Virus record (IMG/VR): IMGVR_UViG_3300006104_000014
Location: 13,360-77,359 of that record
Length of the DNA: 64,000 nucleotides
DNA from: a virus
Reading direction: 5' to 3' (one strand)
The notes under the pieces were generated by a model that saw only the letters and a program-made list of their open reading frames with translations, was not told the DNA's origin and did not search any database. The position numbers and the translations under genes are program-made. This document shows positions 717 to 41,921 of this stretch, piece by piece (position 1 is the first letter of the stretch; each line of letters starts with the position of its first letter).

Positions 717-1441
717 ACGTAGGGTACCTGGTAGTATGGATGTTCTGGCCAAAGGTTCTCTAAGGTGCAAGTTTGATTTACTATCTTAGAGTTCGTAGGA
801 AATGGTTGATTTCCAGTTCTATAGGGTTTTATAGCTGAGTTGCTTGGACCAGTTCTTACAGTAACGGGACTAACATTTGATACTTGGAATCTAGTTGAAG
901 AAAGTACTGGAGTATCTCCATCCCATTGTTCAATTCTTACAACTAAATCACCCTGTCTCAATTGGGGAAACCAAGAAAATTGTACTTGGGGATTCTGTTG
1001 CCAAAACTGTCCAGTTTCTAAATTCTTTCTCGTATCTGCAGTATCAGAAGCCAACATATAGAGGTGGTAAGCTACAGGTTGAAAACCACCTGTAAATGTA
1101 GTACCATAGCAAGTTTGACAATAAGAGTTACCAGTCTGCTTATATACTGCAGAAACTCTAGACCTTATATTAGCATTAGGATTAGAAGGGTCTGGGGAGT
1201 CTTGACATTCCTGGCAATAAGTAACTAGACCAGCTTTTGCATCTTCAGCTCTCCAAAGTAACCTTACAATACACTGCTCACCAAACCATTGTAAGGCTTC
1301 ATCATGGAATCTTTGCTGATCAATCTCAGCCCAATTTTCTGTTTGCTTACGGACATAGAGAGAGGACTCAACCTGAAATGGAATAGTCTGTAGAGGTGGA
1401 GTAGGTTCCTCTATTGGTCCATAAGATGGCTGAATTGACAC
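713..1441 (-). CDS. Head-tail connector/neck protein with CxxC pairs
   Basis: 242 aa, CQEC and CQTCYGT.F.GG motifs, GDLVVR; synteny. Confidence 0.55.
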   Translation of the reverse strand: MSIQPSYGPIEEPTPPLQTIPFQVESSLYVRKQTENWAEIDQQRFHDEALQWFGEQCIVRLLWRAEDAKAGLVTYCQECQDSPDPSNPNANIRSRVSAVYKQTGNSYCQTCYGTTFTGGFQPVAYHLYMLASDTADTRKNLETGQFWQQNPQVQFSWFPQLRQGDLVVRIEQWDGDTPVLSSTRFQVSNVSPVTVRTGPSNSAIKPYRTGNQPFPTNSKIVNQTCTLENLWPEHPYYQVPYV

Positions 1442-1878
1442 TAGTTATCCTCGTGTCTAAACTGTTCTGAGACAGAGTTGGCAAGTGAAGAAAGGTGTTC
1501 AGCATGCTCTCTAAGAGCTTCACATTGATCTTCATGTAATGATTGATGTTCATCATCAGCAAGTATACCCATATGTCCCTGTAGATTTGACCAAGCATCA
1601 AAAGCTGCTGAATGTAAGTGAGCAGCAAGAGCATGAGAAGGGGAAGTAATTGGGTCAATGCCCCGTTTTTCAGCACCCACTTGTTGCTGTCTAGTTATTG
1701 GATGGCCCCCAGTAGTATCATAGGCTAACTTTCCGTGGAAATCCATCATATCATCGTGGAGTCCCATCATTTCATTGGCTCTAGTCAAATAATGATTAGC
1801 TGTCCAAAACTTAAACTTATTTGTAAAATCTTTAAAATCTTCATCAGATTCGTTAGCGTAACGTTGATTCCAATCCAC
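1441..1878 (-). CDS. His-rich hypothetical protein with DWNQRYA leader
   Basis: 145 aa ORF, translationally coupled on both sides. Confidence 0.7.
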   Translation of the reverse strand: MDWNQRYANESDEDFKDFTNKFKFWTANHYLTRANEMMGLHDDMMDFHGKLAYDTTGGHPITRQQQVGAEKRGIDPITSPSHALAAHLHSAAFDAWSNLQGHMGILADDEHQSLHEDQCEALREHAEHLSSLANSVSEQFRHEDN

Positions 1879-2744
1879 TACATACCACCCATATTTACAG
1901 CAGCATACATAAAGTGAGGACGTGCTGGGTTGATAAACATTCTTGGAATAAGACCACCAGCAACCAAAAGACTTCTCTTAGAACCAACCATGTATGCACG
2001 CTTCATCTGACGGAGCTGTTTGTCAGCAATTTCTTTCTCTATGTTATAGAGATCCATCCAGCGATTATAGTAATCTCTTCTATTCATCCAGGCAGCATTC
2101 ATACCTTCTGGAGTAGGTTGCTCAATATAGTTTCTAGCAATATGCTTAATGAAGTGAGCATAGGTTTGAGTAGCTAATACACCCCACCAGGTAGAAGGAA
2201 ACGGAACCATTGCATTAGAACCCATATCATAAGCTGGACGGAATACGGGCTGAAACTCATAGTTAATATAGTCTAAAGCTTCTGTTGACATAAGGAATGC
2301 AACATCTTCGTACATATTAAAACCAGATTGACTAAGCTCCTGCAAGTATGGACCACCAGAAGAGGAGTCAAAACTTTTATCTAATCTATGTACAATTCCA
2401 GCAACTAATTGCTTTTCATCTGCTGTTAACATTTGCCAATAAGGCATTGCTTCTGTAATAGTAAAGGAGTCTGAGTAAAACCTTGCATTCCCACTAGTAG
2501 TATAGGACCAATTGGCTTTATAGTTACCTAATATAGTTGTCTCTGTAGAGCTGAGACTATAGGTATAAGTTCCTGTACTTTCACGAGTAGCTGCTGTCCC
2601 ACTTGGAACCAGTACGACGTTATTATCAGTATTAATAACTTCTAGGGTCACCGAATTGTCATCAGCATCTGTAAGTGCACCTTGAACATAGATCATAAGC
2701 CCAATGGGCTCCACGGAATATTGTGGAATGGGTCTTACCCTCAT
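1878..2744 (-). CDS. Head-to-tail adaptor-like protein with N-terminal Ig-like domain
   Basis: 288 aa; beta-rich N-terminus (GTYTY..GNYKANW), RRDYYNRW; position downstream of capsid genes. Confidence 0.55.
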   Translation of the reverse strand: MRVRPIPQYSVEPIGLMIYVQGALTDADDNSVTLEVINTDNNVVLVPSGTAATRESTGTYTYSLSSTETTILGNYKANWSYTTSGNARFYSDSFTITEAMPYWQMLTADEKQLVAGIVHRLDKSFDSSSGGPYLQELSQSGFNMYEDVAFLMSTEALDYINYEFQPVFRPAYDMGSNAMVPFPSTWWGVLATQTYAHFIKHIARNYIEQPTPEGMNAAWMNRRDYYNRWMDLYNIEKEIADKQLRQMKRAYMVGSKRSLLVAGGLIPRMFINPARPHFMYAAVNMGGM

Positions 2745-10306: not shown

Positions 10307-11320
10307 TCAGCTCTTAACGATCTTACCAAGGCCTCTTGGGTTAAGAACAATCTCGGAAACGAGCTCGTCCATGACCCAACCCTTGTGGAACTTCTCAGGA
10401 GTGTGGTTCTCCTCGACGTCTAGGGAGTACATGACTGGGAATACACCTAAGAACTCAGGCGATGGGGTCATGTAAACGGTACCCTGAGGAACCTCGATCG
10501 AACGCTGGACTTGGAAGCCACCGAACTGAACGATTCTCTCACCGGCTACAACGCGGTCCTTGAAGGCCCAACCGGTCTGGTTGATGTCCCACTTGTAAAG
10601 GTCACGGTAGTCAATTGGGTTGAACAGCAAGCGGCTGGCCTCCAACTGGTGGACCTCAATAAGAGCAACCAGGTCGTACATTGAGTCTGGGGTAATGTAA
10701 CCCGAAAGCTCGTTGATGACGTGGTTAGGACTAACCGTGTGGTTAGGGTCAACAGCGTAGTTGTTAATAGCAGCCTCGAGCACCGTGATAAGACGGGCGT
10801 CTTCCTGCATCATGATAGCCTGCTTGGACATGTCCTGAGCATACTCTACGATGTTGACTCTGAGGTACCAGAGGTCTTCCTTTTTGATTTGAGGGAACGT
10901 GGCAATACGGAACAGTCGGACCGGAACCTTTTTACCTTCGAATGGGGTTACACGAACCTCACCCTCGTTACCCGACAGGATGTAGGCCTGGCCGTACTCG
11001 TCCAGGACATCGTACATAACAGGAACACCAGGGGTCAGTGGGTCCTCAAGCAGTACGTTACGGGTCATACCCTGATAACGGAGCTTAAGCTGGATAGGAC
11101 CAATCATACCCTGGCCCAGACGGACCATATAGTTGTCCTTGTCAGCAAGGATCGAAGCTAAACGACGTTGCTTCTCCTCACGGGTGGCCGAAACACGACC
11201 AGTAGCGGTTTTGAGACGGTCACGAGCCTCAATAATGTCGGATACATAACTGTCCGACTTTTTGGCGGTACGTGGTTGCAAGTGGTCTGCAACTCCGCCC
11301 ATTGGGGTAATTGTACTCAT
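10307..11320 (-). CDS. Major capsid protein (Bxz1/cluster C actinophage-like)
   Basis: MIGPIQLKLRYQG..RNVLLED.LTPGVP, FRIATFPQIKKEDL, LGVFPVMYSLDVEE, KGWVMDELV..LNPRG recalled from Bxz1-type capsids; higher-GC codon bias. Confidence 0.9.
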   Translation of the reverse strand: MSTITPMGGVADHLQPRTAKKSDSYVSDIIEARDRLKTATGRVSATREEKQRRLASILADKDNYMVRLGQGMIGPIQLKLRYQGMTRNVLLEDPLTPGVPVMYDVLDEYGQAYILSGNEGEVRVTPFEGKKVPVRLFRIATFPQIKKEDLWYLRVNIVEYAQDMSKQAIMMQEDARLITVLEAAINNYAVDPNHTVSPNHVINELSGYITPDSMYDLVALIEVHQLEASRLLFNPIDYRDLYKWDINQTGWAFKDRVVAGERIVQFGGFQVQRSIEVPQGTVYMTPSPEFLGVFPVMYSLDVEENHTPEKFHKGWVMDELVSEIVLNPRGLGKIVKS

Positions 11321-11907: not shown

Positions 11908-14643
11908 CTAGAGGGTCATCAGGAAGTCATCAGCGATGATGTCCTGACGTGTTACTGAACTGGCTGTTGTCATACGGCCCATCTCTGGCATCCGATTGTT
12001 ACCGGAGGCCACCTTTGCTACCCGGGGTTGACGGGCCCCAGATTTTTCGAGCATGTCTACGTTCTCCTTGTAACCAGCGAGCTTTTCAGCAGACATTTGC
12101 TCAAACTTTGCAATGTGCATGGCCTTGTCTTCCGAGTTGACCATACCCAAACGCTCAAGTCGATCTACTAACTCAATCGACTCTAATACTCTTTCTTTAG
12201 CAGCCTGTACAGCAGCTGCAACATTTACGGAACCAGTAGTACCTTGGGTTTGGTACTCAAGACCCATGTAACCTTGCAAAGCAGGGTTGGTGGGGTCATT
12301 TGGCCATGGCTCACGGTGGTAATTATAAGCAAGACCATAACCGGTCTCTCCGCCATCGTTGTAGTAGTCTGGAACGTCAGCTAACTGAAGCTGGTTAGGC
12401 TGTAAGTTAGGAACTGTAACCTGAGTCATTGCATCAGGTTGCATTACGTACTGACGGTCAAAAATACCGGCCTGGTCGTCAAGGTCTCTTACGTCCGTTG
12501 TACGACTGGTCTCTTGGTTACCATTAGTACCAATCTTGGAAATACTCGAAAGGCTTTCCTCAAGTTGGATTAAGCTATTGCTAGCTGTACGGGTGTCCAG
12601 GGAGTTGTCAAAGTACTCTTCGAGATCAGCAGCAAACTTAACTAAGGCCTTTGCTGTCTCAATTTCGTGCCTAGAAGACGTACGGAGGTTAGTGCTGTAA
12701 TTGATAATTACAGAAGCAAGACGGTCTCTTAAGGTACTAAAGTCACCATCGCCATTAGCTTCAAGCTCTGTACGGAGGTTTCTTGAGGCTTCGTAGGCTT
12801 TGTAAAGAGATTCTTCAACACCATCGTATACTACAGCAGATCCTCTAATATTTGGACGTGTACGAGCACCACCTGCACCATCTGCTGGGGTAGGCTTACC
12901 AAATGAAATGCCCTTTGCACGTCCACGACTAGATGCCTCTGGAGGAGTAGGCCCATGTAATGCTTCCATAGACTCTACAAAGTTTTGAGCGTATTCGTGG
13001 TTACCTGGACCGTGAGTCTCAGGAGTAACAACTTCACCACCGTCGTGGTGGTATTGAATACCGTGCCACTTACGCTTTGTTCTGTCACTGTATTGAGTTG
13101 TGACTACAGATGGGGAAGAAGGAAGATTCTCTCCTGTGTCTGAGTCAACAAATGGGATGGAATCTGGGTGAGCCGAACCTTCAGCAATTTGGTGAGGATA
13201 AGCATAACCTGCTGGAAGGTTGGATGGGTCATAGTCGTGACCGGTGATTCTTCCAAAGTACTGACCCTGGTCATCACCCTTTCTTTCACTTGGATATGGG
13301 GCAAAGATACCACCAGCTGGGTGAGCCTCTTTGAAGGCTTTAGCATGCTCAATTGGGTCTACTTCTACTTCACGACCATGCTCATCGTAGTCAGTACCAA
13401 ATCGGTCAACTGGGAACGTTCCAGGGGCCCAACCTTGGTTCATGTTGAATGGCTTACCACCGGAAAGTGGGGAACCGTTAATGTTTTCTGGAACAGCTGT
13501 CTTTACAGAACCAAGCTTTTTCTTTCTGCAATCTGTACACATGGGTGCACCGTCAACTCTACGGGTTGGAGTGTTGGTGCAGCCTTCTGTAGTACAATTT
13601 GAACTACGAAGTGGTGTACCCTTACCCTTAGCAAACTTAATTTGCTCATCGCCACAAGGAGCACAAAGGTTGATTACTTCACCGTAACCAGCAACTTTGT
13701 AGGTGTCAGCATAGTCACCACAGGCGTCACAGGAAACAGCAGAAGCTCTTTTAGCTGTATTGTAAGGTAACCAACCAGGTTGCTCAAAGCTAGCAGGAGT
13801 ACCAGCTACTTGAGGACCGGCGATGGGTTGTTGTTGCCAAGGAGACATTTCTGCATGTACCTCATTGCTTCCAGGACCACCCTGAATGTCGGGTGCATCA
13901 AGATTTGTAACATCTAACCAACGCTCTGGATAAACATCTTTCCACATGTCCATCTCTGGGGTTGGGGCTTGGGAGGACAGACCAAAGGGTCCATCCAAGT
14001 TCATGTTAGAAGTTTGGTCATACTGTACTCCGGGTACAGCTGCCTCTCTTCTAAGCTCATCGTCAAATCGACTCATTCTAGCTCCTGTCGGTTGTCTTTT
14101 GTCTTCTACTACTTCTGGATTGTGAATAATGTTATTCTCAACCCCGGTAAGCTGATCGTCTTCTACTTCGGCTAAGTTGTCTTTGCCTAAACTATCAACG
14201 GAAGATTTCTTTGGATTCTTACCTGTATCCCTATTAGGATTCTTTTTGTTCTTTTCCCAGGGGATTACCTTTAGCTTTGGGTTACGCCCTATAACGTTGT
14301 CTTTATTCTGATCATTTGGATGCATTAGCTCCGGGGCTGTTGTAGTCCTACCACAAGACTCACACCAACCAACGGTGCAATTGGGGCACTTATCCTCTTG
14401 TTGTTTCTTTGCAGAATTTTTCTCTTGTAAAGCCTTCTTTTGATCTTCTTGTTGCATGTAAATATCTTCGGCCATCTGAGTCTTTTCACTCACATAACCA
14501 CAACTCTCACAAGCTTGTCCATCATAAGTTGTACCACATTGGGGACATGGGCCCATATCCTGTGTGGTATCAACATCTGCCGGAATTCTTATTTTCTCTT
14601 CTGCAAACTTTAGAAGCTCTGCAGAGACTTTAAGAATTGGCAT
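11908..14643 (-). CDS. Large scaffold/head-internal protein with CxxC zinc ribbons
   Basis: 911 aa between protease and decoration gene; low complexity; helical C-terminus; many K/R-x-A sites. Confidence 0.6.
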   Translation of the reverse strand: MPILKVSAELLKFAEEKIRIPADVDTTQDMGPCPQCGTTYDGQACESCGYVSEKTQMAEDIYMQQEDQKKALQEKNSAKKQQEDKCPNCTVGWCESCGRTTTAPELMHPNDQNKDNVIGRNPKLKVIPWEKNKKNPNRDTGKNPKKSSVDSLGKDNLAEVEDDQLTGVENNIIHNPEVVEDKRQPTGARMSRFDDELRREAAVPGVQYDQTSNMNLDGPFGLSSQAPTPEMDMWKDVYPERWLDVTNLDAPDIQGGPGSNEVHAEMSPWQQQPIAGPQVAGTPASFEQPGWLPYNTAKRASAVSCDACGDYADTYKVAGYGEVINLCAPCGDEQIKFAKGKGTPLRSSNCTTEGCTNTPTRRVDGAPMCTDCRKKKLGSVKTAVPENINGSPLSGGKPFNMNQGWAPGTFPVDRFGTDYDEHGREVEVDPIEHAKAFKEAHPAGGIFAPYPSERKGDDQGQYFGRITGHDYDPSNLPAGYAYPHQIAEGSAHPDSIPFVDSDTGENLPSSPSVVTTQYSDRTKRKWHGIQYHHDGGEVVTPETHGPGNHEYAQNFVESMEALHGPTPPEASSRGRAKGISFGKPTPADGAGGARTRPNIRGSAVVYDGVEESLYKAYEASRNLRTELEANGDGDFSTLRDRLASVIINYSTNLRTSSRHEIETAKALVKFAADLEEYFDNSLDTRTASNSLIQLEESLSSISKIGTNGNQETSRTTDVRDLDDQAGIFDRQYVMQPDAMTQVTVPNLQPNQLQLADVPDYYNDGGETGYGLAYNYHREPWPNDPTNPALQGYMGLEYQTQGTTGSVNVAAAVQAAKERVLESIELVDRLERLGMVNSEDKAMHIAKFEQMSAEKLAGYKENVDMLEKSGARQPRVAKVASGNNRMPEMGRMTTASSVTRQDIIADDFLMTL

Positions 14644-14644: not shown

Positions 14645-15298
14645 TCAAGTCCTCATTTTAGCAAGAATACCAGCTGATTCGTCGGCGGGATCAAAAACGT
14701 AGCTAAGTTCAAAAAAGTTAGGTTTTACACAACTTTCGTAAATTAAAACTTCTTTTCTTGAACTATCTTTATAAATAGAGACCCTTTGTCCCTTTAACTT
14801 AGGAATATGTTCACAAAATTCTGAAGGCTTAGAGGCTACTTTGTGGCAACCAGAGCAAATAGTTGCATCTACGTCAGCACCCATACTAACAGCATTCAAT
14901 TTACCTTCCATAATAGCATTAGCTAATTTTGGAAAGCTTTCTGCATCAACCTCGGATAAAGCATAAACGGAACCATCAACAAGACCGGAAGCTAACTTTG
15001 TCTCCTTGTAAATAACATCAAGGATAACACCTTTAGCTTTAGTATGGTCACTGTTGTTGTGCTCTACGAACATTGGACGGCCAATAAATGTCTTATAGGC
15101 TGTTCTTAATTCGTGTACTGGCCAACCGTCGTAATTAGCATTTACTCTGGAGGAGATTGCTCTAGATACGGTATAAACCATACCTTTTTCAGGAGTAAAT
15201 CTAAAGTCCTGAAAGCCCACCTTATGCATTTGGATGGTCTCACTTGGGGCTCCGTACCCCAGGGACCTTAATGATGGGCTTCCGAATTTTTTAAACAT
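14645..15298 (-). CDS. Prohead (capsid maturation) serine protease with zinc-finger insertion
   Basis: F.GRPMFVEHN (His), AVSMG (Ser), CSGC..FCEH, FFELSYVFDPAD. Confidence 0.8.
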   Translation of the reverse strand: MFKKFGSPSLRSLGYGAPSETIQMHKVGFQDFRFTPEKGMVYTVSRAISSRVNANYDGWPVHELRTAYKTFIGRPMFVEHNNSDHTKAKGVILDVIYKETKLASGLVDGSVYALSEVDAESFPKLANAIMEGKLNAVSMGADVDATICSGCHKVASKPSEFCEHIPKLKGQRVSIYKDSSRKEVLIYESCVKPNFFELSYVFDPADESAGILAKMRT

Positions 15299-23661: not shown

Positions 23662-23666
23662 AATTA

Positions 23667-24381: not shown

Positions 24382-24777
24382 TTATCTATCTAAAAAGGGT
24401 CCATGGGGGATACCAGGGCTTGCAGCGGTGGGGTCGTAAGCAATGTATTTAACTGTCAATTCTTCGTCTTTTCCAACTGGTTTAATTGCACGTAAACTAC
24501 TAAACATATCATTTTCACCATGTCTATAAAACTCACAATTAGGAGTTTCGGCGTTATGATTGATATAGGCGCCAGTAGGTGTACGAATAACTCCTTCAGC
24601 AAATCTCCCATCACCTCTAATATGGGTAACACCAAAATCTCTACCAGCTGGAATGTCTTCTTTTGCAAAAAGACCGTTTCCGTGAATAGAAGAAGGTCTT
24701 ACATCTAATTCGTTGGGTAAGGGTTTCCAAAAACCTTGCTCACTCCAACCGGCGTATCTTTGTTTCCAATTAATCAT
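24382..24777 (-). CDS. SET-domain protein (lysine methyltransferase-like) with NWKQRYA leader
   Basis: SSIHGNGLFAKEDIPAG, YINHN..PNC, LRAIKP..KDEELTVKY. Confidence 0.85.
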   Translation of the reverse strand: MINWKQRYAGWSEQGFWKPLPNELDVRPSSIHGNGLFAKEDIPAGRDFGVTHIRGDGRFAEGVIRTPTGAYINHNAETPNCEFYRHGENDMFSSLRAIKPVGKDEELTVKYIAYDPTAASPGIPHGPFLDR

Positions 24778-25175
24778 TAGAGGTCTCCGTTATTATAAGT
24801 AGAACGTGGATAGAAATATGGATTATCTGTTAAGATCTTTACTGGGATCGGCTTATCTGAAGCTATTTCCAATGAACTAATAAGTCTGTGGTGTCCTTCA
24901 AAAATTTCTTTATCAGCAACATTTCCATCTCCGCCACCCTTATATTCGATGACGGCAATAGGTTTACTTAGACCATTCTTTTTAATGTCATCATGTAATC
25001 CAGACTCTTTAGATTCTTTTAGCTTTTGTTGCCAAAAATTCTCTGGGTCAGGAGAGTCAGATAGTTCACCCATATTAACTTCATAGTTAGATATTATTTC
25101 TCTAGGAGTTTTATACTCCATACGATCATAGTCAGCATGTGGTGCTATAGCGTATCTTTGTTTCCAATTAATCAT
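24777..25175 (-). CDS. ParB/Srx-like domain protein with NWKQRYA leader
   Basis: DIKKNGLSKPIAV, IFEGHHRL, PIPV; likely start at MINWKQ. Confidence 0.75.
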   Translation of the reverse strand: MINWKQRYAIAPHADYDRMEYKTPREIISNYEVNMGELSDSPDPENFWQQKLKESKESGLHDDIKKNGLSKPIAVIEYKGGGDGNVADKEIFEGHHRLISSLEIASDKPIPVKILTDNPYFYPRSTYNNGDL

Positions 25176-26815: not shown

Positions 26816-26841
26816 ATTACTTACTTGACATAGTTAGAACT

Positions 26842-28099: not shown

Positions 28100-28101
28100 A
28101 A

Positions 28102-28335: not shown

Positions 28336-28391
28336 ACCGTTCCTTTTTACTGGTTATGGGATACTTAAAGAATAACATTACTAATTTAGCT

Positions 28392-31864: not shown

Positions 31865-31866
31865 AA

Positions 31867-32964
31867 TTAGAACCAGTTGGCGTCGGTACCAAGGATGTCA
31901 TCTACACTTGCTACTTTTGCAGAAGCTGTCTTGGGAGTATAGTACTCTCTGCTAGCAACTTTGTCTCTTCTAACAATTTCAACATTCTCAATAAAATTGT
32001 CGATAACAGCAGCTCTCTTAGTAACATCGAGGATAGGAAGTGTCTTTTGCTCAATGTAGTAAGAAGCAGCTTCTCTAGTTGAACTCTGACTATTAAGAAG
32101 TGAGTTGTTTTGGTCCTCTACCCATACTTCAGCACCTGCTGTAACTAGATTGACCCAGTCAGCACTAGCAAACTCATCTTCAATAGTCTTTGCTGTACGG
32201 TAAAGAAGTGAACCATCATCCTCACCAAGGTCCATAGTACCAAAGTTAGTTGGTCTATAAGTACTGGCAACAGTTCCACCTGGAAGACTGTTTAAGTACT
32301 CTTCGGTGTCAAAATCAATATATTCCGAAGCAACTCTTTGCAAAGATTCCTTTTCGGTATCTAGCTCTGTAACAATGCTAGAAATCTTTGAAAGGCTATT
32401 GTGGTCTAAATTGGGGTCAGACGAAGCTGTTCTAAGCTCATCAATAACCGACTGTAGTTGCTCTAAGCGGTTATAGATACTGTCTGATTTACCATTGAAC
32501 CAGGAAACGTCAGCTGTTACCTGTCTGGCAAGTCTGACTAAATCGTCTGCTTCGTACATGTTTTGCTCCTTGTGAGAAATTTTACTTGCTGCAGCCGATA
32601 GGCCACTTTGGTAATCTGTAAAAGTTGGTCCATCTGATGTTGTAGCTGCATCATCTGCTGCAGTTTGTGGTACTTCTGTATTTTCATCAACTGGGCTATT
32701 TGTAGGACTAAAGAATGGAACTGAAGTCTTTACGGCACCTAGTCTTTTAGCTCTTTGTTTATGGTAATCCTGCATATACGCTTTTCTATGGGCTTCCTTA
32801 ATAGAAGATTCATCCCCAGGAGTATACGTATAGCACTTACAATCTGCATAAGAAGCTTTCTTACCTGGTTCCCCATTTGGTCCCTTACAGTCAACAAGGG
32901 GACCAGGCGTATAGTCAAAAGCTATTTTAATAAACTCTTTCCTACTTACATCTTCAAGCTTCAT
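31867..32964 (-). CDS. Hypothetical (probable head-associated) protein
   Basis: 365 aa; many R/K-x-A sites. Confidence 0.7.
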   Translation of the reverse strand: MKLEDVSRKEFIKIAFDYTPGPLVDCKGPNGEPGKKASYADCKCYTYTPGDESSIKEAHRKAYMQDYHKQRAKRLGAVKTSVPFFSPTNSPVDENTEVPQTAADDAATTSDGPTFTDYQSGLSAAASKISHKEQNMYEADDLVRLARQVTADVSWFNGKSDSIYNRLEQLQSVIDELRTASSDPNLDHNSLSKISSIVTELDTEKESLQRVASEYIDFDTEEYLNSLPGGTVASTYRPTNFGTMDLGEDDGSLLYRTAKTIEDEFASADWVNLVTAGAEVWVEDQNNSLLNSQSSTREAASYYIEQKTLPILDVTKRAAVIDNFIENVEIVRRDKVASREYYTPKTASAKVASVDDILGTDANWF

Positions 32965-35027
32965 GACTTACCTCTGTTAAACTTAATTCTAGAAGTCCCA
33001 CGACCAAAACTAAAACTATCTACACCTCTTAATATAGGAGTTGTATCGTCCTCTACAGCCTTATGCTCTACACCTGGACGGGTTTGTAGTTTCTTTGAGC
33101 AACCATTTGCACAAACACCCTGGGTACCTTCTTCACCACAACTTGCACAACCTTGAATTGGGTCGAACTCTTTTGAGTCACAATTACCACACTTTAATGG
33201 TTGGTCAGCTGCACCACAAGCTAAACATCCAATATCACTTGGAGTAGACTTTCCATGTACACAATTTGGGTCTCCACATGCACAAACGTCTAAGCTTAAT
33301 GGATCAAACATTTCATCAGCACCCCTGACCTCTGGGGTGTCTAAATTAAAATTTACTATCGATGTCCTATCGGCTGGGTCATCGTTTGGGTCAGCATCAT
33401 ATTCATCACCAATACGTGCAGCGGTAAAACGGATCTCTCCACCACAATCGTAGCAAACATTTCCTGAGCCATTGCAGTTTAAGCAACGGGATCCAATCTT
33501 GGTATTACCCTCGTCGTCAATGCAACTTTCCTGTGCACAAGCAGCTACTTTAATTCCATTACACTCAACACAGCTAGCCATTTTGATTGGAACATGAACA
33601 TGAGTTCTGTTGGGAGGAGCTGATTGGGTTGGGGTCATACGATAGATCTTACCGTCATTGTATCCGTGGATATAGTCATCGGAGACAGCTGCAATTACTT
33701 CATCCAGCTTTTTGTTTTCTCTGGCATCCCAGTACCCTTGGAAGTACAAATCAGAGTCTGTAGCCTTCTTTGTTAGACTCTCATTATAACCTACAGAACC
33801 CCACCTCATAACGTCACCATCTCCTACACTTGCTGGATCAGCTCCGTCTGATGCTCCACCATTACCCATACCAACTAGAGCTATTCTATCTGAACCTTCT
33901 CCACCAAGCCAATGCCCGTCTTGCATAGCTGGTAATGAATCAGCATCAGCAAATCTATGGAAAGACAACATTTGTTGCTTTTGATTTGTTACACTTGCTG
34001 GTTCAGTCTCTGTAGATGGATCAACTGGATTAGCAGCCGGATTAACCTGACCCATAGGAGCAGTTGGGGTTACGGGTGCTGTTGGGTTCAACCCTGAGTT
34101 AGTCATCATTCCACTTGCAGCAACTACTTTGAAGTATTTTCCACCAAGGAAAGTAGAACCAGCTGACTCTCCACCAGGAGAACCACTTTCTGCTGTTCCA
34201 AATAATGGTCCCTCATACCCTACACCAGATGGGTCATCTGAATGTTCTGCATTAGCAGCACTATCTGCTCTTACAATCCAGGAACTTTGTTTATTGAAAG
34301 CTGGACCCCACTTATTTCCATGAGATTCTAAGCTATATTGTGGGTGTTGTGGAGTTTGTTCTGGCTCTGTATCAAGACCAATTTGTCTAAGCTGGTGTTC
34401 AAAATCAAACTCTCCTAAAGCTTTTCGAGTTTCAGCTATTTGGGGGTCTTCAGCATAAGTTCTGGGAGCTGTTTGTTGTCTATTTCTTACTTTATTGACA
34501 ACATATGCAGTCCCTGCAGCTAAACCAGTTGCACCAAGCCCTAAAGCTACTTCTTTAAGAGCATGCCCTCTATTAGCTGCTTGCTGTGCTGGTGTAAGAG
34601 CATGCTGAATAGCTTGGGCAGGCCAACCATGACCTGTAGGACCATTAGCTTCCTTACCCATACCAGCAGCATCCATAGCATCATACTTAGAACGCTTTTG
34701 AGCACAATCTTCCTCGGAAGTACAAGGTTCGTCTCCGTATTGGGCATGCCAATGGTCATGTCCTTGGTCATGTCGAAGAATGTCCTCTAAGGGTTCACCA
34801 TCACCAGCAATCATATCGAGCTTTTGATCTACTTCTTCAAGCTTTTGTAAAATTTGTGGTTCAAGATTTCCTGCAGTTACCCAAGTTGAGGGTCTTACAG
34901 AAGCTTGTCGCTCTTTACCAGCACAGGCACTGCAAAGTCCCTCACTATTTAATGGACCAGGTCCACCACACTCTGAACAGGTCTCTTCTGAATCCTGTAC
35001 CTCAGAAAATCTTAACGGAAGTGTCAT
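32961..35027 (-). CDS. Large low-complexity multi-CxxC protein
   Basis: 688 aa; numerous CxxC; YFQGY.D..YIHGYNDG. Confidence 0.7.
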   Translation of the reverse strand: MTLPLRFSEVQDSEETCSECGGPGPLNSEGLCSACAGKERQASVRPSTWVTAGNLEPQILQKLEEVDQKLDMIAGDGEPLEDILRHDQGHDHWHAQYGDEPCTSEEDCAQKRSKYDAMDAAGMGKEANGPTGHGWPAQAIQHALTPAQQAANRGHALKEVALGLGATGLAAGTAYVVNKVRNRQQTAPRTYAEDPQIAETRKALGEFDFEHQLRQIGLDTEPEQTPQHPQYSLESHGNKWGPAFNKQSSWIVRADSAANAEHSDDPSGVGYEGPLFGTAESGSPGGESAGSTFLGGKYFKVVAASGMMTNSGLNPTAPVTPTAPMGQVNPAANPVDPSTETEPASVTNQKQQMLSFHRFADADSLPAMQDGHWLGGEGSDRIALVGMGNGGASDGADPASVGDGDVMRWGSVGYNESLTKKATDSDLYFQGYWDARENKKLDEVIAAVSDDYIHGYNDGKIYRMTPTQSAPPNRTHVHVPIKMASCVECNGIKVAACAQESCIDDEGNTKIGSRCLNCNGSGNVCYDCGGEIRFTAARIGDEYDADPNDDPADRTSIVNFNLDTPEVRGADEMFDPLSLDVCACGDPNCVHGKSTPSDIGCLACGAADQPLKCGNCDSKEFDPIQGCASCGEEGTQGVCANGCSKKLQTRPGVEHKAVEDDTTPILRGVDSFSFGRGTSRIKFNRGKS

Positions 35028-35770
35028 TATAGTTTCTCAATATCTGCTAAGAGGTCATTAAGGCGTAGTTGCCCATATTTACCTGCTATTACGATCTCTG
35101 GTGTAATGATGGCCCAAGACTCATCCATGTAAGCTTGCAACCAGCTCCAAGCAATTGGTTGTACAGCTCCCCAGGTAATTCCGTATGCGTAATCCTTATC
35201 GTAGCCTACAAGGATAATACAATGTCCACCGAGGATATTTCTATCAGCTTGTGTATGGGTTAAAGTCCAAGGCTTATGGGCTGCAAATTGACTTTCAGCT
35301 GGAGTTGGAAGCTCAATACCAATGTAAGCTAAGCCATAACTAGCAATTACTGACTTTAACTCTTGGAAATCTGCTCTATCTGTAGGAGCATAAGCTGCAA
35401 TCTTGGACCCAAATAATGGATTAGACTGCCAGTACTTAAGTAGATCAGCCTCTACAGCACCAGAATCTTGTCCATTGGTATATTTTAAATAAGCTTGAAC
35501 TACTTGCTGTGTAGTTGGAAATGTTTCTTTAAGGGAAAGGGTAGAAGCTGTTGCCATTCTAGCGTGTACAATACCAGCGAAAGTACAATCACCGTACTGA
35601 TCATTCCCTAACATCTCCCAGCTAGCAACTTTGGGGACAGAAACAGAAACTGGGGCAGTTGGCAAAGGATTTTTCTGGTAAAATGCTAAAGCATGCAACC
35701 CTTCTGGCCTTTGTGGGGCAAGTTTACCAAGTTTTCCTATGTTTCTTTCCGACATTTCATCCCCAAACAT
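35027..35770 (-). CDS. Papain-like cysteine peptidase (C1/C39-like)
   Basis: GNDQYGDCTFA, GGHCIILVGYD, TWG; start may be 35755. Confidence 0.75.
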   Translation of the reverse strand: MFGDEMSERNIGKLGKLAPQRPEGLHALAFYQKNPLPTAPVSVSVPKVASWEMLGNDQYGDCTFAGIVHARMATASTLSLKETFPTTQQVVQAYLKYTNGQDSGAVEADLLKYWQSNPLFGSKIAAYAPTDRADFQELKSVIASYGLAYIGIELPTPAESQFAAHKPWTLTHTQADRNILGGHCIILVGYDKDYAYGITWGAVQPIAWSWLQAYMDESWAIITPEIVIAGKYGQLRLNDLLADIEKL

Positions 35771-35814
35771 AAATTTTCTACAACTAACAGTGAATTTTAC
35801 TGTTGTTTACAATA

Positions 35815-36093: not shown

Positions 36094-36269
36094 TTTATCC
36101 CCCTCGGGCTCGTCACATATATAAACGATATTAGTATAATTAATGATATTAACTGTTCTTTATAACTACTGTTAAGTATAAGGCCTAGAATTTGTTGGTC
36201 AACCCAAACCGCGAAATTTTTTTATTCAATTTCTCCCTTGGAAACACTAGGGTTTACAAGACTCATTAC

Positions 36270-36890
36270 CTAGTCCTTATAAAAGTTTCCAAATGATTTA
36301 ACTTCATCGGTATGGAGGTGTCTACTTACGTCTGGAACACTAAGGAGTACATTTTTTAACCGTTTCCAGTTTCCTTTTGATAGTCCAACCGTGTACTGAA
36401 GATAATCTTTAATTTGACTAGCAGTATGTTGAGTAGCTCTATCCCTCAGTTCTTCTATTGGACCTTGATCAAAGTGATCTGCTAAACACATTCTATCGTT
36501 AGAGCGCAGATCACCTTCTGTGCTTCCCGTTGAGTCTCTTTGAATACGCTTAAAGAAGTCACTAAATCTTACAGCTTTTTCATCTTCCCCAAAAGCTATT
36601 CCACACATTGGGCATTTATGCTCTTTGATAGCCATTTGTTCTCTATCATAATTGTTTAATGGAGCTCCACCATTACTTAAGAATTCAGCAACAAACGGAA
36701 TTGGAACTCTTTTATGTAGGACAATGTCTTTTCCAGGGTTTGCAGTTTCGGTAGATGTAGAAGGTCTTGGGAGTCCTAGAGTGTAAGCATTTTCAGGTGT
36801 CCATTCTACTGCATTTTTTACAAAGTGACTGGGTCCATGACAGAACGTACATCGAGGTCTACTAGCATATCTTTGACTCCAGTTAATCAT
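36270..36890 (-). CDS. Zn-binding hypothetical protein with NWSQRYA leader
   Basis: 206 aa; CTFC, CPMC..F..DEKAVRF, GPIEELR. Confidence 0.7.
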   Translation of the reverse strand: MINWSQRYASRPRCTFCHGPSHFVKNAVEWTPENAYTLGLPRPSTSTETANPGKDIVLHKRVPIPFVAEFLSNGGAPLNNYDREQMAIKEHKCPMCGIAFGEDEKAVRFSDFFKRIQRDSTGSTEGDLRSNDRMCLADHFDQGPIEELRDRATQHTASQIKDYLQYTVGLSKGNWKRLKNVLLSVPDVSRHLHTDEVKSFGNFYKD

Positions 36891-37156
36891 TTTTTTGCTG
36901 CTTCTCCATCATGGAATTGTCTAAGCTCTAATGCTTTTTTCTTTAAATTGATGTCACCTTTGGGCTTGCTAGTTAGGCCTCTTTGCCAGGCTCTCTTAGA
37001 TGTATCAATCTTTACCAATACATCCCTGAGTAGATCTGCAGCCTGGGTATGGTAGCTTTGAGTCTCACTAGGTGTACTGGTATGTTGGGTATATTTCCCC
37101 CAAGCCTCTTGTACACTAGGAGAGAACGAAGAGGCGTACCTCTCAGCCCAGTTCAT
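36887..37156 (-). CDS. Hypothetical protein with NWAERYA leader
   Basis: 89 aa coupled ORF. Confidence 0.7.
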   Translation of the reverse strand: MNWAERYASSFSPSVQEAWGKYTQHTSTPSETQSYHTQAADLLRDVLVKIDTSKRAWQRGLTSKPKGDINLKKKALELRQFHDGEAAKK

Positions 37157-37496
37157 CTATAATCCTCTGCATTTGTTGACGAGCTGTTGAATTTTTACAT
37201 TCTGGGCATAGACGTTGACTATGCTCACGTGGGTCTGCAAGAAGTCCACGATTTACGTTATTCCTATATTTTTCAAGACCCATATCTCCACGTAAAAGAA
37301 CAGCTTCGTTGTGTTCTTCTCTATTACAGTGCAAACAAGTACCACCAAATTCTTGGTGGTCTCTATAGTGTTGAAATAAGCGTTCTACTTTTTCGTGGGG
37401 ATCGGGTATTTTTTCTAAATCTTTGTGTTCAGCTGAGATCAATTCTGGATCTTTTCTCCAGTCTTGAAAAGCTGCATATCTTTGTAACCAATTCAT
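37143..37496 (-). CDS. CxxC hypothetical protein with NWLQRYA leader
   Basis: 117 aa. Confidence 0.7.
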   Translation of the reverse strand: MNWLQRYAAFQDWRKDPELISAEHKDLEKIPDPHEKVERLFQHYRDHQEFGGTCLHCNREEHNEAVLLRGDMGLEKYRNNVNRGLLADPREHSQRLCPECKNSTARQQMQRIIDELG

Positions 37497-37505
37497 GATA
37501 TTTAC

Positions 37506-37697
37506 CTAACAGTTTAGACAGTTATTACCATCATTAGTAAGTTCATTAGCTGCTACAAGAGTGCCACAGCTTTTGCATCTTCTGGCAACAGGATTATTTT
37601 TAACTGCTCGTTCAGAGTTGGGATTATTTGACATAAAGCCACGAATCTTTTCTTGTAAATCTTCTGCTGCTGTAGAGTAGCGTTCGGCCCAATTCAT
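37506..37697 (-). CDS. Small zinc-ribbon protein with NWAERYS leader
   Basis: 63 aa; CKSC..CLNC. Confidence 0.7.
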   Translation of the reverse strand: MNWAERYSTAAEDLQEKIRGFMSNNPNSERAVKNNPVARRCKSCGTLVAANELTNDGNNCLNC

Positions 37698-38113
37698 GAG
37701 ATGAACTTCCTGATGTATTTTTCGGCTTCGTAATCTGAAGCACTAGCAACGTGGGCTCCACCATGGCCTCTGTGGTGGAAAAAGCATAACCAAACTAAAT
37801 TGTCAGCACTCTCTACCCACTTGCCAACGCTGTCGGGGTCGCTCACGCCGGGATAATCGGCTTCCAACCACTTGAGATCCACTCCATTCTGGAGTGCAAA
37901 CTCTATATGAGCGTGATGAAGCTCGAGTGGCCGGTCAAGAGAGCACTCAGAAAAGTCATTATGATGAAGGCCAACGGCACACTGAGCGGTTGCATGAGTT
38001 TTTCTACGGTAAGCATTAAAATCGACATAATTAGGGTCTCCCTCTCTTGGTTCATGCTCTGGAAAGTGAGCTGTATATCTATGTGTTTCGTTTCTACTAT
38101 GTGCTTCTGTCAT
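37694..38113 (-). CDS. HNH-like His/Cys-rich protein
   Basis: LELHH..IEF, NLVWLCFFHHRG. Confidence 0.55.
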   Translation of the reverse strand: MTEAHSRNETHRYTAHFPEHEPREGDPNYVDFNAYRRKTHATAQCAVGLHHNDFSECSLDRPLELHHAHIEFALQNGVDLKWLEADYPGVSDPDSVGKWVESADNLVWLCFFHHRGHGGAHVASASDYEAEKYIRKFIS

Positions 38114-38625
38114 TTGCCTTCAGCCTTATGTCTATCGTCACACGTGGGGCACCAAACCCAACCAATAGCTGCCCAGTAGTCTTTCATATGGTCGTTTACC
38201 CCAACATTTCTAACATCTTTTTCATCGATGGGTTTTCCACAACTAACACAAGGAACTCTGGGATGGAGTGTCCCTTCTTTGTGGAATTTTTTCATCCAAG
38301 CTAACCAGTCAGGAGTTCCCAATGACTCAATGTCTCCAGTGGCTCCCCAAGCAAATTGAGAATGCTCATCTGCTTCACTATCATTAAGAGTCAACAATCG
38401 GTGGGAGTTGTAATGTAATTGAGCAGCTGCACTGTGGAGTCTAATTAAACGTCCGAGGCCACTATGAGTCTCACCTGTATCTTGAATAGCTTTCCTTTGT
38501 AGGTTCATTAACCTACGGGACTCATCTTTGTGGGTAGCCATTTGATGAATATGGGACCCAGGTTGAAAGCCAGCTAATTCAGCTTCAACTAAACTCATAC
38601 GTGGATGGACATCGTCATCAATCAT
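38110..38625 (-). CDS. Hypothetical protein with His-Ala helix and zinc ribbon
   Basis: 171 aa; CVSC..CPTC. Confidence 0.65.
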   Translation of the reverse strand: MIDDDVHPRMSLVEAELAGFQPGSHIHQMATHKDESRRLMNLQRKAIQDTGETHSGLGRLIRLHSAAAQLHYNSHRLLTLNDSEADEHSQFAWGATGDIESLGTPDWLAWMKKFHKEGTLHPRVPCVSCGKPIDEKDVRNVGVNDHMKDYWAAIGWVWCPTCDDRHKAEGK

Positions 38626-38957
38626 TATTTTGCTTTATTCTTTTGTTGACGTTTCTTTTGCTTTTCTTCATCTGCAGCTTGGGCTCTACCTGTATAGACT
38701 CCAATAGCATCGTAGTCATCACATTTACTGCACATATGACTATTAGCTAGATTTTGTATAAAAGAGTCACTATGTATACCCTTACCTTGTCTTCCAATGA
38801 TAGCTACAACGTGGTCATGTTGAGCTTCTCTAGAAACTAAAGCATAGCGTACTGCTCCGAATGTTTTTAATTTATCTCTAGAACTAAGCTGACCCCATAT
38901 GGCTTCAATATCATCAGTTACCTGTTTGCTCGCTGCATACCTTATAGACCAGTTCAT
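38625..38957 (-). CDS. Hypothetical protein with NWSIRYA leader
   Basis: 110 aa. Confidence 0.7.
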   Translation of the reverse strand: MNWSIRYAASKQVTDDIEAIWGQLSSRDKLKTFGAVRYALVSREAQHDHVVAIIGRQGKGIHSDSFIQNLANSHMCSKCDDYDAIGVYTGRAQAADEEKQKKRQQKNKAK

Positions 38958-40375
38958 AGTATATCTTCAAACCCTTCATAGCCAGGAGCAAGCTGTCGCC
39001 ATGGGTAAGCCCGTTGAAACTTGTTAGCTATATTAATCAGCCTATTGTCCTGATAGTGCAGCGCTGTTACCTGCAAACCGAACGGCAATCCATTAGAACA
39101 CGCACCGAACGGTATGGATATTGCAGGCACACCTGTGACATTTTGCATTGACTCGTTATAGTCTTTTGCTGGTGGATTATAGCTACCATCAGCAGCGAAG
39201 CCAGGGTTTGGATTGGTTGGCGTGAGAAGCAGTCCATCGCTGCCAAGGAGATCATCAAGATTTTTAATATACATAAACCTCTTGCGTCGAAGATCCATGT
39301 ATTCTTGTAGGTCTACACCCTTACCTATAGTTAAAAAGTCTTTACCAGATTTAGTTAGTTTGTCCCAGTGCTTGTCTACCCACTGCTTGCCAAATTTAGT
39401 ATACTGATCTGCTGACACAGCATTGTACCACTCAAGATCCGGATTGCCCTCTGGGAAAACATCCCGTGGCTCTATCCATATCACTTCGCGCTTCATTAGC
39501 TTACCAAATGCTTCTGCTGCCTCTTTAAACTTTTCAGCAGTCTCTGCTGGCAGCTTTCCAAATGGTGACGTTCTTTCAGCTGCGTATATCTTACCGACAC
39601 CATATTCTTTATTGTCCAGGAAGTTAACAGCGTCCAGTGGCAAGCTTGCTGGGTCGCCAGGAGTAGGTGTTTTAAGGATATTATACATTAGTTGTAAATC
39701 GTCAGCAGAGTTAGCTAGAATACCATCAGTGGAGTAATCTATCCAATCTTGTGCAGGCCACCGGCCTATCATGCCATTGGTTGGCTTCAGCCCAAGCAGC
39801 CCACAGTAACCTGCTGGTGTGCGAATAGATCCGCCACCGTCTGTACCTGTAGCTGCAAAGACCAGGCCAGCAGATAGTGCAGCAGCACTACCACCACTAC
39901 TACCACCAGGAGCTAGCTTAATATTCCAGGGGTTAGTTGTTACTCCTGTTAGATCATTGGCTGTGTAGCCATTGCAACCAAACTCGGGTAGTGTGCTTTT
40001 GCCAACAAAAATAAACCCACTAGCTCTCATCTTTGCTGGAGTAGCATCGTCTTGCTCCTCTGGCTTTGCATTCTTAAATGCAACGCTGCCCTTTTTAGTT
40101 GGCATGCCTTTAACATTCTGCAGATCTTTTATCAGTGCTGGTACACCATGGATTGCTCTAGTAGCTTGACCACTATCAAACATTTTAGCTTGTTGGAGCG
40201 CGTCATCATATGCTTCGTGTGCAATGACATTAAGATCTTTGTTATACTTTTCTATATTACTTATACTTTTTTCTACCAGCTGGGTAGATGTGACTTTGCC
40301 AGACTGTAGAGCAGCAACAGCGCGTGTCAATGGACCAGAATTTTTACTAGATGAATAGCGTTGTGACCAGTTCAT
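38954..40375 (-). CDS. Amidase signature family enzyme (GatA-like fold) with NWSQRYS leader
   Basis: GVPALIKD (Lys), PGGSSGGSAAA, GTDGGGSIRTPA, GLPFGLQ. Confidence 0.92.
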   Translation of the reverse strand: MNWSQRYSSSKNSGPLTRAVAALQSGKVTSTQLVEKSISNIEKYNKDLNVIAHEAYDDALQQAKMFDSGQATRAIHGVPALIKDLQNVKGMPTKKGSVAFKNAKPEEQDDATPAKMRASGFIFVGKSTLPEFGCNGYTANDLTGVTTNPWNIKLAPGGSSGGSAAALSAGLVFAATGTDGGGSIRTPAGYCGLLGLKPTNGMIGRWPAQDWIDYSTDGILANSADDLQLMYNILKTPTPGDPASLPLDAVNFLDNKEYGVGKIYAAERTSPFGKLPAETAEKFKEAAEAFGKLMKREVIWIEPRDVFPEGNPDLEWYNAVSADQYTKFGKQWVDKHWDKLTKSGKDFLTIGKGVDLQEYMDLRRKRFMYIKNLDDLLGSDGLLLTPTNPNPGFAADGSYNPPAKDYNESMQNVTGVPAISIPFGACSNGLPFGLQVTALHYQDNRLINIANKFQRAYPWRQLAPGYEGFEDIL

Positions 40376-41676
40376 TGGTATTGCTCTTGTCTTTGTTCAA
40401 CATTTTTACGACGTTCTTCTGCCCTACAGTCAAGGCAAGGTTGTCTAGACATATTGGGTTGTAACAACTGGCCTAATGGAACTGTATTATAGCAACTTAA
40501 GCAAGTACCAACAGATTGTGGTTTTTCAGAAGCAGCTGGTGTTGCAGCTTGTTCTGTTTGCTGTGTTTGGTTTCTTTTACGGTACTGTCTTCTTGGAGTC
40601 TTAGGGGCAGCTTTACTATCACGGTCTTCTGTTTCGTTAGCTGAATACTCTTTGGGTGAATAGTTTTTTACAAACTCACTGTAGTCATCAGAGCCTTTTG
40701 ATAATCCAGCATTTACAGCAGCTTGGTGAGCAGCAGCATAAGTTCTACAACCCTCACAGGGCTTTTCTTTTAAGTTGTAGTGTTTTGATAAGTTAGAGTG
40801 GCTAGGTTGACCTTTTGGGTCTTCAGAATCCCAATCATGTTCTACACTTGCTTCTGGCCTATTAAGGTAGGCCATTCCACTATGTACACTACCATGCTTG
40901 TTAGACATCATAGCTCTAAAGGCAGCTTCTGCTTTTGCCTTTGAAGTGTGGTGAGATAAGATCTTACCTGTACCCTTTTGCCAAATTACCCAGCTTTTAG
41001 ACTTCTTATCGTAACGTACATAATGGTATCCATTTTCAGATGCATACCTTTCATTCCAATTAGCACTACCCATATGCCCTTCCATAAAAGGCTTCATCGA
41101 TTCTTGTAGGTACTCATCATGGAAGGAATGTGCATTCATCTTAGAGTAATTTTCTCTAAGTTGTTCAATTGGGCCTTCTTCAATATTTGTACCCGACGAC
41201 CTAGGAAATAATTCAGAATGGGGCTGTGTCTCTTGTTCAGATCTACTTGGAAGTCCATGACAAAATACCATCAAATCTGATAAGCAATTTGAGTGTGCAG
41301 GTCCAGCAAAATGTGCACCAAAATCTGATGGAAGTATTTCTCCATCTTCACTAGGACCTGGGACTAAACGTTTTGCCATTTCTCCAGGTTTAAACTTATC
41401 CCCACACCAAATACAACGGTTTTCTCTGATGCACTTTTCATGCATCATTGGGTTGATGCCACCGTCTGGATGCATAGTATAACCTACAGCATGTGGCTCG
41501 TCACTAAAGGAGCCTCCACCAGTAGGTCCATAGAATTTTCTAGTTGGAACGTAGTGTGGTCTTGACCTTCCAATAGGTGGATCCCATATCATACTTCTGT
41601 TCCAAAGTTTCTTTGGCTTAGCGTATCTCTTGTCCCAAGCTAAGGAACCTAAATAGTTAGTCATACTTTTACTCAC
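40372..41676 (-). CDS. Multi-domain hypothetical protein with two WxxRYA motifs
   Basis: 434 aa; WDKRYA, NWNERYA, CIWC, GKILSHHTSKAKA. Confidence 0.7.
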   Translation of the reverse strand: MSKSMTNYLGSLAWDKRYAKPKKLWNRSMIWDPPIGRSRPHYVPTRKFYGPTGGGSFSDEPHAVGYTMHPDGGINPMMHEKCIRENRCIWCGDKFKPGEMAKRLVPGPSEDGEILPSDFGAHFAGPAHSNCLSDLMVFCHGLPSRSEQETQPHSELFPRSSGTNIEEGPIEQLRENYSKMNAHSFHDEYLQESMKPFMEGHMGSANWNERYASENGYHYVRYDKKSKSWVIWQKGTGKILSHHTSKAKAEAAFRAMMSNKHGSVHSGMAYLNRPEASVEHDWDSEDPKGQPSHSNLSKHYNLKEKPCEGCRTYAAAHQAAVNAGLSKGSDDYSEFVKNYSPKEYSANETEDRDSKAAPKTPRRQYRKRNQTQQTEQAATPAASEKPQSVGTCLSCYNTVPLGQLLQPNMSRQPCLDCRAEERRKNVEQRQEQYQ

Positions 41677-41921
41677 CTATACTTTTCCAATACGTCTAAG
41701 GCATCGCTTATACCAGCAGCTCTATCTGGGCTATAAATACCATTACCAGCTGCAAGGTGGGCATTAGCAGCTACAAGGTGGGCCCTTGATAAAGGTCCCT
41801 CTGTATTTTTTGACCGGTCTAAATGGTATAAGTGTCTAGTACCATGGTCGTAGGGATCTAATTCAGTCTGAATAAAAGGCCCAAGTGATACTTTCTTAAA
41901 ACGCTCATTCCAACTATACAT
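41673..41921 (-). CDS. Hypothetical protein (MYSWNERF...), His-Ala helix
   Basis: GGAG RBS before ATG 41921. Confidence 0.6.
   Translation of the reverse strand: MYSWNERFKKVSLGPFIQTELDPYDHGTRHLYHLDRSKNTEGPLSRAHLVAANAHLAAGNGIYSPDRAAGISDALDVLEKYR

Follow-up and report, generated by a model that had tools for sequence, protein, structure and literature searches.

Tagged genes of a freshwater phage contig

The IMG/VR virus record IMGVR_UViG_3300006104_000014 is a 77,359-base contig (CheckV completeness 52%), and its bases 13360-77359, a stretch of 64,000 nucleotides (nt) referred to here as the window and numbered from its own first base, encode a series of otherwise unrelated proteins that carry a short peptide tag, [N/D]-W-x-x-R-Y-[A/S]. 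Nearly all genes of the contig lie on the minus strand. An earlier note, prepared from the letters of the window, had listed 13 copies of the tag and had proposed that it loads diverse enzymes into the phage head for delivery with the DNA; a six-frame scan recovered all 13, each on the minus strand and at the open reading frame (ORF) start or position reported.

A GTG-started ORF of 145 amino acids (aa; 1441..1878) opens with MDWNQRYA. The start MINWKQRYA is shared by a SET-domain protein of 131 aa (24382..24777; Pfam SET, 4.2e-08) and a ParB-like protein of 132 aa with an EGHHR motif (24777..25175), and next to them lies a ParB-like paralogue (23869..24375) in which a TAA forms codon 6, inside the tag (MINWK-stop-RYA); apart from this single TAA, the other 167 of its 168 codons are open. 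Four tagged genes follow one another at 36270-37697, encoding a zinc-ribbon protein of 206 aa (36270..36890, MINWSQRYA), a protein of 89 aa (36887..37156, MNWAERYA), a Cys/His-rich protein of 117 aa (37143..37496, MNWLQRYA), and a zinc-ribbon protein of 63 aa (37506..37697, MNWAERYS) whose orthologues in related contigs begin with MNWSERYA or MNWNQRYA. Further along are a protein of 110 aa (38625..38957, MNWSIRYA), an amidase-signature enzyme of 473 aa (38954..40375, MNWSQRYS; Pfam Amidase, 2.3e-71), a two-tag protein of 434 aa (40372..41676), and a protein of 82 aa with the variant MYSWNERF (41673..41921). The two-tag protein has WDKRYA close to its start (41620-41637) and NWNERYA 207 residues in (41041-41061), and looks like a fusion of two cassettes.

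Among the 106 minus-strand proteins of the window, W..RY[AS] occurs 11 times, against 0.088 expected when each protein is shuffled (2000 shuffles, maximum 2), and N-terminal copies number 8 against 0.0025 in the same shuffles; a chance origin of the tag is excluded. The early-like region is free of it, as the earlier note had said: no copy lies in 42000-64000, nor in the remaining 13 kb of the contig.

BLAST sorts 71 unique tagged proteins from the window and its relatives into 41 families, between which similarity is detectable only in the tag, so that the bodies behind it are as unrelated as had been claimed. With one representative taken from each family, the arginine of the tag is encoded by all six codons (AGA 17, CGT 13, CGC 6, AGG 3, CGA 1, CGG 1), which extends the four codons seen earlier in the window; asparagine is written AAC (24) or AAT (13), tyrosine TAC (28) or TAT (12), and alanine with four codons, and the DNA upstream of the tagged genes shows no conservation across the 41 families. 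Given the six arginine codons, the free synonymous variation, and the unrelated upstream DNA, selection acts on the peptide. The SET and ParB-like genes agree in all of their first 26 nt, which points to recent exchange at the tag. The tag has the consensus M-[N/D]-W-[N/S]-x-R-Y-[A/S]-x-[E/D], and variants with F for W are seen in orthologues.

Tagged proteins are short, with a median length of 115 aa, and contain roughly twice as much Cys and His as other proteins. Their recognizable domains comprise Amidase, SET, Cupin, DnaJ-type and other zinc fingers, ParB-like, HNH, and NUDIX. Of the labels assigned earlier in the window, amidase and SET are borne out by Pfam; the ParB-like label is sustained by the EGHHR motif and finds no significant match in Pfam or PHROGs. 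The amidase illustrates the modularity of the tag. Its cellular homologues are 47-50% identical, the named ones coming from metagenome-assembled genomes of Acidimicrobiales, and lack the tag, as does a homologue that is 62% identical. The cellular proteins begin M-x-x-x-P-G-P-L and the phage enzyme begins MNWSQRYSSSKNS-GPL, such that the tag and a 5-residue linker stand in place of the homologues' first ~5 residues; the tag is thus grafted onto a complete enzyme. Judged by its sequence, this member of the amidase-signature GatA family is an acquisition from Acidimicrobiales-like bacteria, a kinship that hints at either the host lineage or the gene donor; a host among the Acidimicrobiia or other freshwater Actinomycetota is one suggestion to be drawn from it.

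Two tagged families of the relatives deserve mention here. A body of ~250 aa recurs between two tags, and the core of its AlphaFold2 (AF2) model (predicted local distance difference test, pLDDT, ~70-88) finds its sole structural counterparts in ADP-ribosyltransferases such as Vis, C3, and ExoS; on this model it has an R-S-E ADP-ribosyltransferase fold like that of Alt, the enzyme of this class that T4 packages and injects (PMC5512222). Another tagged family adjoins the terminase gene in the relative G001 and contains a domain of ~75 aa that occurs, in other phages, within proteins annotated as "minor head protein" or "capsid maturation protease" or encoded in the portal and major capsid protein (MCP) region.

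Phage clade and cassette hot spot

The contig encodes a large terminase (59761-61755), and its MCP gene is followed by tail genes. Its nearest cultured kin are Mycobacterium cluster C phages (Bixzunavirus) together with Rhodococcus phage E3, whose MCPs are 64-65% and whose portals are 34-39% identical to its own. The DNA sequencing runs that contain the window stretch are freshwater metagenomes.

Relatives were sought with degenerate DNA patterns. At least 40 contigs of IMG/VR and dozens from metagenomes carry the tag, often with several copies at one locus, and unique copies number 141-145, in 77 credible loci and on at least 41 unrelated bodies; the scan of related genomes that the earlier note had advised thus returned a clade-wide tag. 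Contigs carry up to 11 tags, nearly all on the coding strand, against 0-3 for reversed-pattern controls. The tag had been described as N-terminal, which holds for 128 of 145 unique copies (~88%), these having a start codon within three residues; the other 17 (~12%), in relatives and in the window, are internal and sit at the joints of multi-domain proteins, and multi-tag ORFs resembling the 434-aa ORF of the window are also found in relatives. A match to the MCP of the window, 91-100% identical, is present in 15 of the 23 tag-bearing viral contigs, and 12 of these matches span the greater part of the protein, at 93-95% identity. Among the eight remaining contigs, seven are fragments (14-69% completeness), and one is a near-complete 40-kb contig with a chance tag match only. 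The tag is a hallmark of one clade, consisting of ~140-150 kb freshwater myoviruses that are distant kin of the Mycobacterium cluster C phages.

Wider searches returned little. In 185,579 bacterial and archaeal genomes, 88 single tag matches were counted, with ~70 estimated by chance, and these lay mostly in short or out-of-context ORFs; a few stood at the N-terminus of longer cellular ORFs and were taken for methyltransferase-like N-termini. A profile of the tag run against 1.84 billion proteins gave only 7 significant matches, mostly multi-tag proteins, and one of them, a eukaryote-like repeat protein, was discarded as a false positive. In the literature searched, this peptide is not described.

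The relatives conserve the structural genes, and most tagged genes are without an orthologue. The main cluster of tagged cassettes is framed by two conserved genes of the minus strand, which are the sole conserved neighbors of tagged genes. The upstream anchor of this hot spot is an untagged HNH nuclease of 139 aa (37694..38113; HNH motifs identified by eye), which is 69-93% identical in 16 of 25 related contigs, with tagged genes directly after it. The downstream anchor is a C1 (papain-family) cysteine protease of 247 aa (35027..35770), assigned from its AF2 model (pLDDT 73), for which Foldseek returned xylellain, Lpg2622, and cathepsins; its Cys62 and His183 are invariant. Both anchors co-occur in the same 16 of 25 contigs, and in at least 13 contigs the order runs from the HNH gene through 0-4 tagged cassettes to the C1 protease gene, with overlapping stops and starts. 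The C1 protease shares its operon with the main cassette cluster and is a candidate second processing enzyme. A distant homologue in an unrelated myovirus, a phage without the tag, follows a muramoyl-alanine (cell-wall) amidase at the end of a late operon, which renders the link between protease and tag uncertain.

The C1 protease is abundant in freshwater metagenomes, with 591 relatives, the best 120 of which bear neither an informative name nor a Pfam family. No longer, fused form came up when such forms were searched for, though this is weak evidence, and PDB sequence searches with this protease and with the prohead protease described below gave no match. No radical-SAM or other modifying enzyme was found among the window and neighboring proteins scanned against Pfam and PHROGs. 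Short N-termini very rich in Cys (e.g., MACTKCDLCQKCACKCEC) recur on genes beside the HNH nuclease in this clade, at loci L295, L296, and others, and in the window at 35815-36093.

Apart from the hot spot, the tagged gene at 1441-1878 lies inside the structural operon, where it shares start and stop boundaries with conserved genes of the neck/tail module, and a tagged counterpart occupies the same syntenic spot in the relative G015.

A motif of head proteins and other window features

A second sequence pattern, [K/R]-x-A-S, is concentrated in and around the head module. Among the untagged proteins encoded at 9500-35800 (the head module and neighboring large proteins), it occurs 25 times against 4.2 expected (z = 11, an approximately six-fold excess), compared with 8 against 4.9 in the rest of the contig, where tail and early-like genes are not enriched. 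Every position of the pattern shows specificity: counted from the putative cut (arrow, [K/R]-x-A↓S), P3 is K (16) or R (9), with ~2 expected for each, P2 is mostly L, V, or T, P1 is A, and P1' is S, with A and T weaker.

Several sites lie near the N-termini of head and mid-region proteins, all encoded on the minus strand. The MCP (10307..11320; phrog_2522, 8.7e-108, the alignment starting at residue 17) carries R-T-A↓K in residues 17-19 and R-L-A↓S in residues 53-55, and the portal protein (16342..18678; phrog_2833, 1.6e-166) has three sites, at residues 6-9, 82-85, and 708-711. A scaffold-like protein of 911 aa (11908..14643) contains six [K/R]-x-A-[S/A] sites against 1.1 expected (p < 0.002), and a protein of 365 aa (31867..32964) contains eight against 0.68, its orthologue in the relative G002 having four against 0.22; the 365-aa protein is probably a head-core protein by this measure. 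Three sites are present in a 179-aa protein. Near the portal, scaffold-like, and capsid genes lies the gene of a prohead (head maturation) protease of 217 aa (14645..15298; phrog_18299, 4.2e-26), which has two [K/R]-x-A↓S sites of its own that are conserved in relatives. This protein is the candidate enzyme for cutting [K/R]-x-A↓S sites. In orthologues of 40-64% identity several sites are kept at the same places, for example K-Y-A-S in the protease of relatives.

The tag and this motif overlap in part. The R-Y-A of the tag occupies P3 to P1 of the head motif, and R-Y-A followed by S or A fits [K/R]-x-A-S; the N-W part of the tag is missing from generic head sites, and no exact RY[AS] was found in the head proteins. 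Because N-W is confined to tagged proteins and R-Y-A↓S fits the head motif, the tag looks two-part in its sequence, with an element specific to tagged proteins joined to a processing site shared with the head. In the tagged bodies such sites are no commoner than chance would give (2 against 3.0, the depletion not being significant), as expected for cargo trimmed only at its tag. In the relatives L291, L295, L296, and L298, a protein of 400-560 aa encoded upstream of the HNH gene has a degenerate, tag-like F-N-S-K/R start, and such starts suggest that the full tag and generic sites are the two ends of a gradient.

Other features of the window may be recorded alongside. Motif enrichment suggests that the proteins of 971, 688, 365, 350, and 179 aa encoded at 9500-35800 are head-internal, and a ferritin/Dps-like protein is encoded in their midst (31307-31864, minus strand; Pfam Ferritin, 3.5e-14). 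A DUF1003 protein whose middle looks hydrophobic by eye is encoded between the portal and prohead protease genes (15318-15743, minus strand) and is kept in relatives, and a cement protein is encoded at 11350-11880. Four tRNA genes (Ile-TAT, Gln-TTG, Thr-TGT, and Leu-TAG) are located at 23049-23661 and 50325-50407. Type II hammerhead ribozymes occur on the minus strand in the spacers of small early-like genes at 44000-58000; three of them pass the Rfam gathering score (45518-45579, 46773-46836, and 52950-53011), and more can be recognized by eye just 5' of ribosome-binding sites. Also by eye, a promoter-like element, AATTTGCA(A/T)TATTCG..AAAATAT, is repeated upstream of three early-like genes (55953-56157, 58328-58409, and 59577-59760), and a T(T/A)TAAGTA(T/C) motif stands upstream of several structural operons.

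A proposed capsid cargo tag and its alternatives

Our preferred interpretation, to which we give about an even chance of being right, is that [N/D]-W-x-x-R-Y-[A/S] is a portable tag for sorting and processing, which loads accessory proteins into the prohead. The N-W part would dock on a component of the prohead core, R-Y-A followed by S, A, or T would be one instance of [K/R]-x-A↓S and would be cut by the 217-aa prohead protease, and the cut would free the cargo within the head, ready to leave together with the DNA; tags at internal positions would serve to split fused cassettes. Several observations favor such a scheme. The tag is well beyond chance, under selection as a peptide, and present throughout its clade, and an independent line of support comes from the enrichment of [K/R]-x-A-S in untagged head and mid-region proteins, a motif that R-Y-A↓S of the tag fits, and from the lack of any such excess in the tagged bodies. 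Unrelated bodies occupy hypervariable cassettes at syntenic spots, in the manner of the internal-protein genes of T-even phages, which vary between close relatives (PMC3012670). The fold predicted for the recurrent tagged body would place it in the class of the packaged and injected Alt, one tagged family includes the ~75-aa domain known inside head-related phage proteins, and the tagged gene at 1441-1878 is embedded in a structural operon.

There is also evidence that weighs against a capsid role. T4-type tags are known only at N-termini, and ~12% of the copies here are internal. The C1 protease, which shares an operon with the cassettes, would offer a different processing enzyme. The fit to the head motif is incomplete, as P1' of the tags is S or A in ~35% of copies (S, A, or T in ~44%), and Y is found at P2 in none of the 25 window head sites and only in the protease of relatives. 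The cargo, with a median isoelectric point of 6.5, is not basic, unlike the T4 internal proteins. The main cassette cluster is preceded by a 400-nt spacer with a near-consensus sigma-70-like promoter recognized by eye, although a scan of 23001-43000 for sigma-70 promoters and terminators (42 sites against 45 expected) was uninformative on timing. Lastly, the Bixzunavirus Mangeria has no tag, and its protease-scaffold fusion is without enrichment of the motif.

The closest precedent is the capsid targeting sequence (CTS) of T4, in which residues 4 and 7 target the protein and residues 8 and 10 form the site of the gp21 protease (PMC9026906). Like the CTS of IPI-III and Alt, the tag is a peptide of ~8-10 residues at the extreme N-terminus of unrelated proteins (PMC9026906; PMC3012670), and the layout would in both cases be two-part, with targeting residues (putative ones here) ahead of a site that matches a motif of scaffold, capsid, and portal proteins; in both, the cargo genes are not conserved between close relatives, and the cargo includes an R-S-E ADP-ribosyltransferase. 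The tag nevertheless has no similarity to MKTYQEFIAE and is an analogue rather than a homologue; the putative site is [K/R]-x-A↓S in place of L/I-x-E, the phage lineage is actinophage-like (Bixzunavirus kin), ~12% of copies are internal, and packaging and cleavage are here only proposed. As for number, up to 11 tags were counted per contig, and the window holds 12 plus one inactivated copy.

Other systems are comparable in part. In the giant phages phiKZ and SPN3US, as is proposed here, many head-internal proteins share a short protease motif at N-termini and internal joints (PMC9026906; PMC5694885), but there the motifs have Glu as their last residue, the propeptides are long and differ from one another, and nothing like an invariant 8-residue tag occurs. 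Polyvalent proteins contain effector domains (ADP-ribosyltransferase, ParB, zinc ribbons, and peptidases) whose delivery together with the DNA has been predicted and which resemble the domains found here (PMC5512222). Relatives likewise have multi-domain ORFs of the form tag-domain-tag-domain, and the window has one such ORF, but the cargo here is mostly encoded by separate small single-domain genes with a tag each rather than by one giant protein, and the ADP-ribosyltransferase is of the R-S-E rather than the HYD type. The cysteine protease Prp is dedicated to the removal of short N-terminal leaders, from ribosomal protein L27 and from the capsid and scaffold proteins of Staphylococcus phage 80alpha; unlike the system described here, Prp involves a different motif and protease fold, and its leaders are found on structural proteins only. 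Bacteriocin-like leaders served by a C39 peptidase-ABC exporter offer no match, as the tag lacks a GG site and the protease is a stand-alone 247-aa C1 fold.

The hot spot itself invites an explanation that dispenses with the capsid, namely that the tag is the site of the phage's own C1 cysteine protease, which would trim leaders and split cassettes in the cytoplasm. The recurrent order of HNH gene, cassettes, and C1 protease gene in at least 13 contigs, the co-occurrence of the two anchors in the same 16 of 25, and the position of internal tags at domain joints all agree with this proposal, as do the predicted fold and catalytic Cys and His of a genuine C1 endopeptidase and the suitability of an aromatic P2 and an Ala P1 for C1 enzymes (one of the fold matches is cruzain with a benzoyl-Tyr-Ala inhibitor). 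We consider it unlikely nonetheless, for the homologue in the tag-less myovirus is found in a lysis-like setting, two contigs have the HNH and C1 protease genes adjacent with zero cassettes between them and tags elsewhere, an 8-residue leader that is merely removed lacks a rationale, and the enrichment of R-x-A-S in scaffold, portal, and MCP would go unexplained. Similarly improbable is the proposal that the tag is never cut and acts as a linear docking motif to one hub, such as host RNA polymerase, the nucleoid, the ribosome, or a phage partner outside the virion. Its W, R, and Y are invariant beyond the needs of a protease site, the cargo consists of macromolecule-modifying enzymes, and the motif lies at N-termini and in predicted flexible linkers, with both copies in the tagged protein P0001 modelled by AF2 as a short low-confidence helix; yet the tag is limited to one phage clade with a near-identical capsid protein, the bacterial and archaeal genomes gave only single matches at chance level, and the agreement of R-Y-A↓S with the head motif would have to be a coincidence, the chance of matching [K/R]-x-A being ~1%.

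Two further explanations fare worse. If the shared start were a recombination joint at the DNA level, with cassette swapping aided by the HNH nuclease and the peptide having little function, the 26 identical nucleotides of the SET and ParB-like genes and the presence of 0 to 4 cassettes per genome beside that nuclease would be accounted for; this is very hard to reconcile with six arginine codons and free synonymous variation in 41 families, with W to F and N to D substitutions that preserve chemistry, with internal copies that are conserved, with upstream DNA that is not, and with amino-acid conservation that exceeds nucleotide conservation in the tag across families. A degradation signal or an optimizer of translation start seems just as remote. 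A-rich second codons are favorable for translation start, and the Asn at codon 2 is A-rich, but neither function explains the invariant W, R, and Y, and the internal copies retain N/D-W..RYA.

Returning to the capsid cargo tag, a bolder form of the idea may be entertained, although we regard it as tentative and would sooner bet against it: any protein of the clade with [N/D]-W-x-x-R-Y-A would dock on the prohead core, be cleaved at R-Y-A↓S by the prohead protease, and travel with the DNA on delivery. The tag would then constitute a readable "injectome" code for a whole clade of abundant, uncultured freshwater actinophages, in which new cargo, newly captured host enzymes among it, is gained by grafting eight codons and fused cassettes are processed as polyproteins in the head.

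The link between the tag and the protease motif is testable. If the capsid cargo reading holds, sequence data would suffice to draw up a list of the effectors that uncultured phages inject, among them an ADP-ribosyltransferase, a SET methyltransferase, nucleases, and a bacterial-type amidase. The cassette hot spot is a natural library of candidate host-takeover and anti-defense proteins, and foreign proteins could be loaded into such capsids by means of the eight-residue tag, which would be a compact handle. Finally, on the same reading, T4-style capsid targeting would have arisen independently in an actinophage-like lineage, with another peptide and another protease code.

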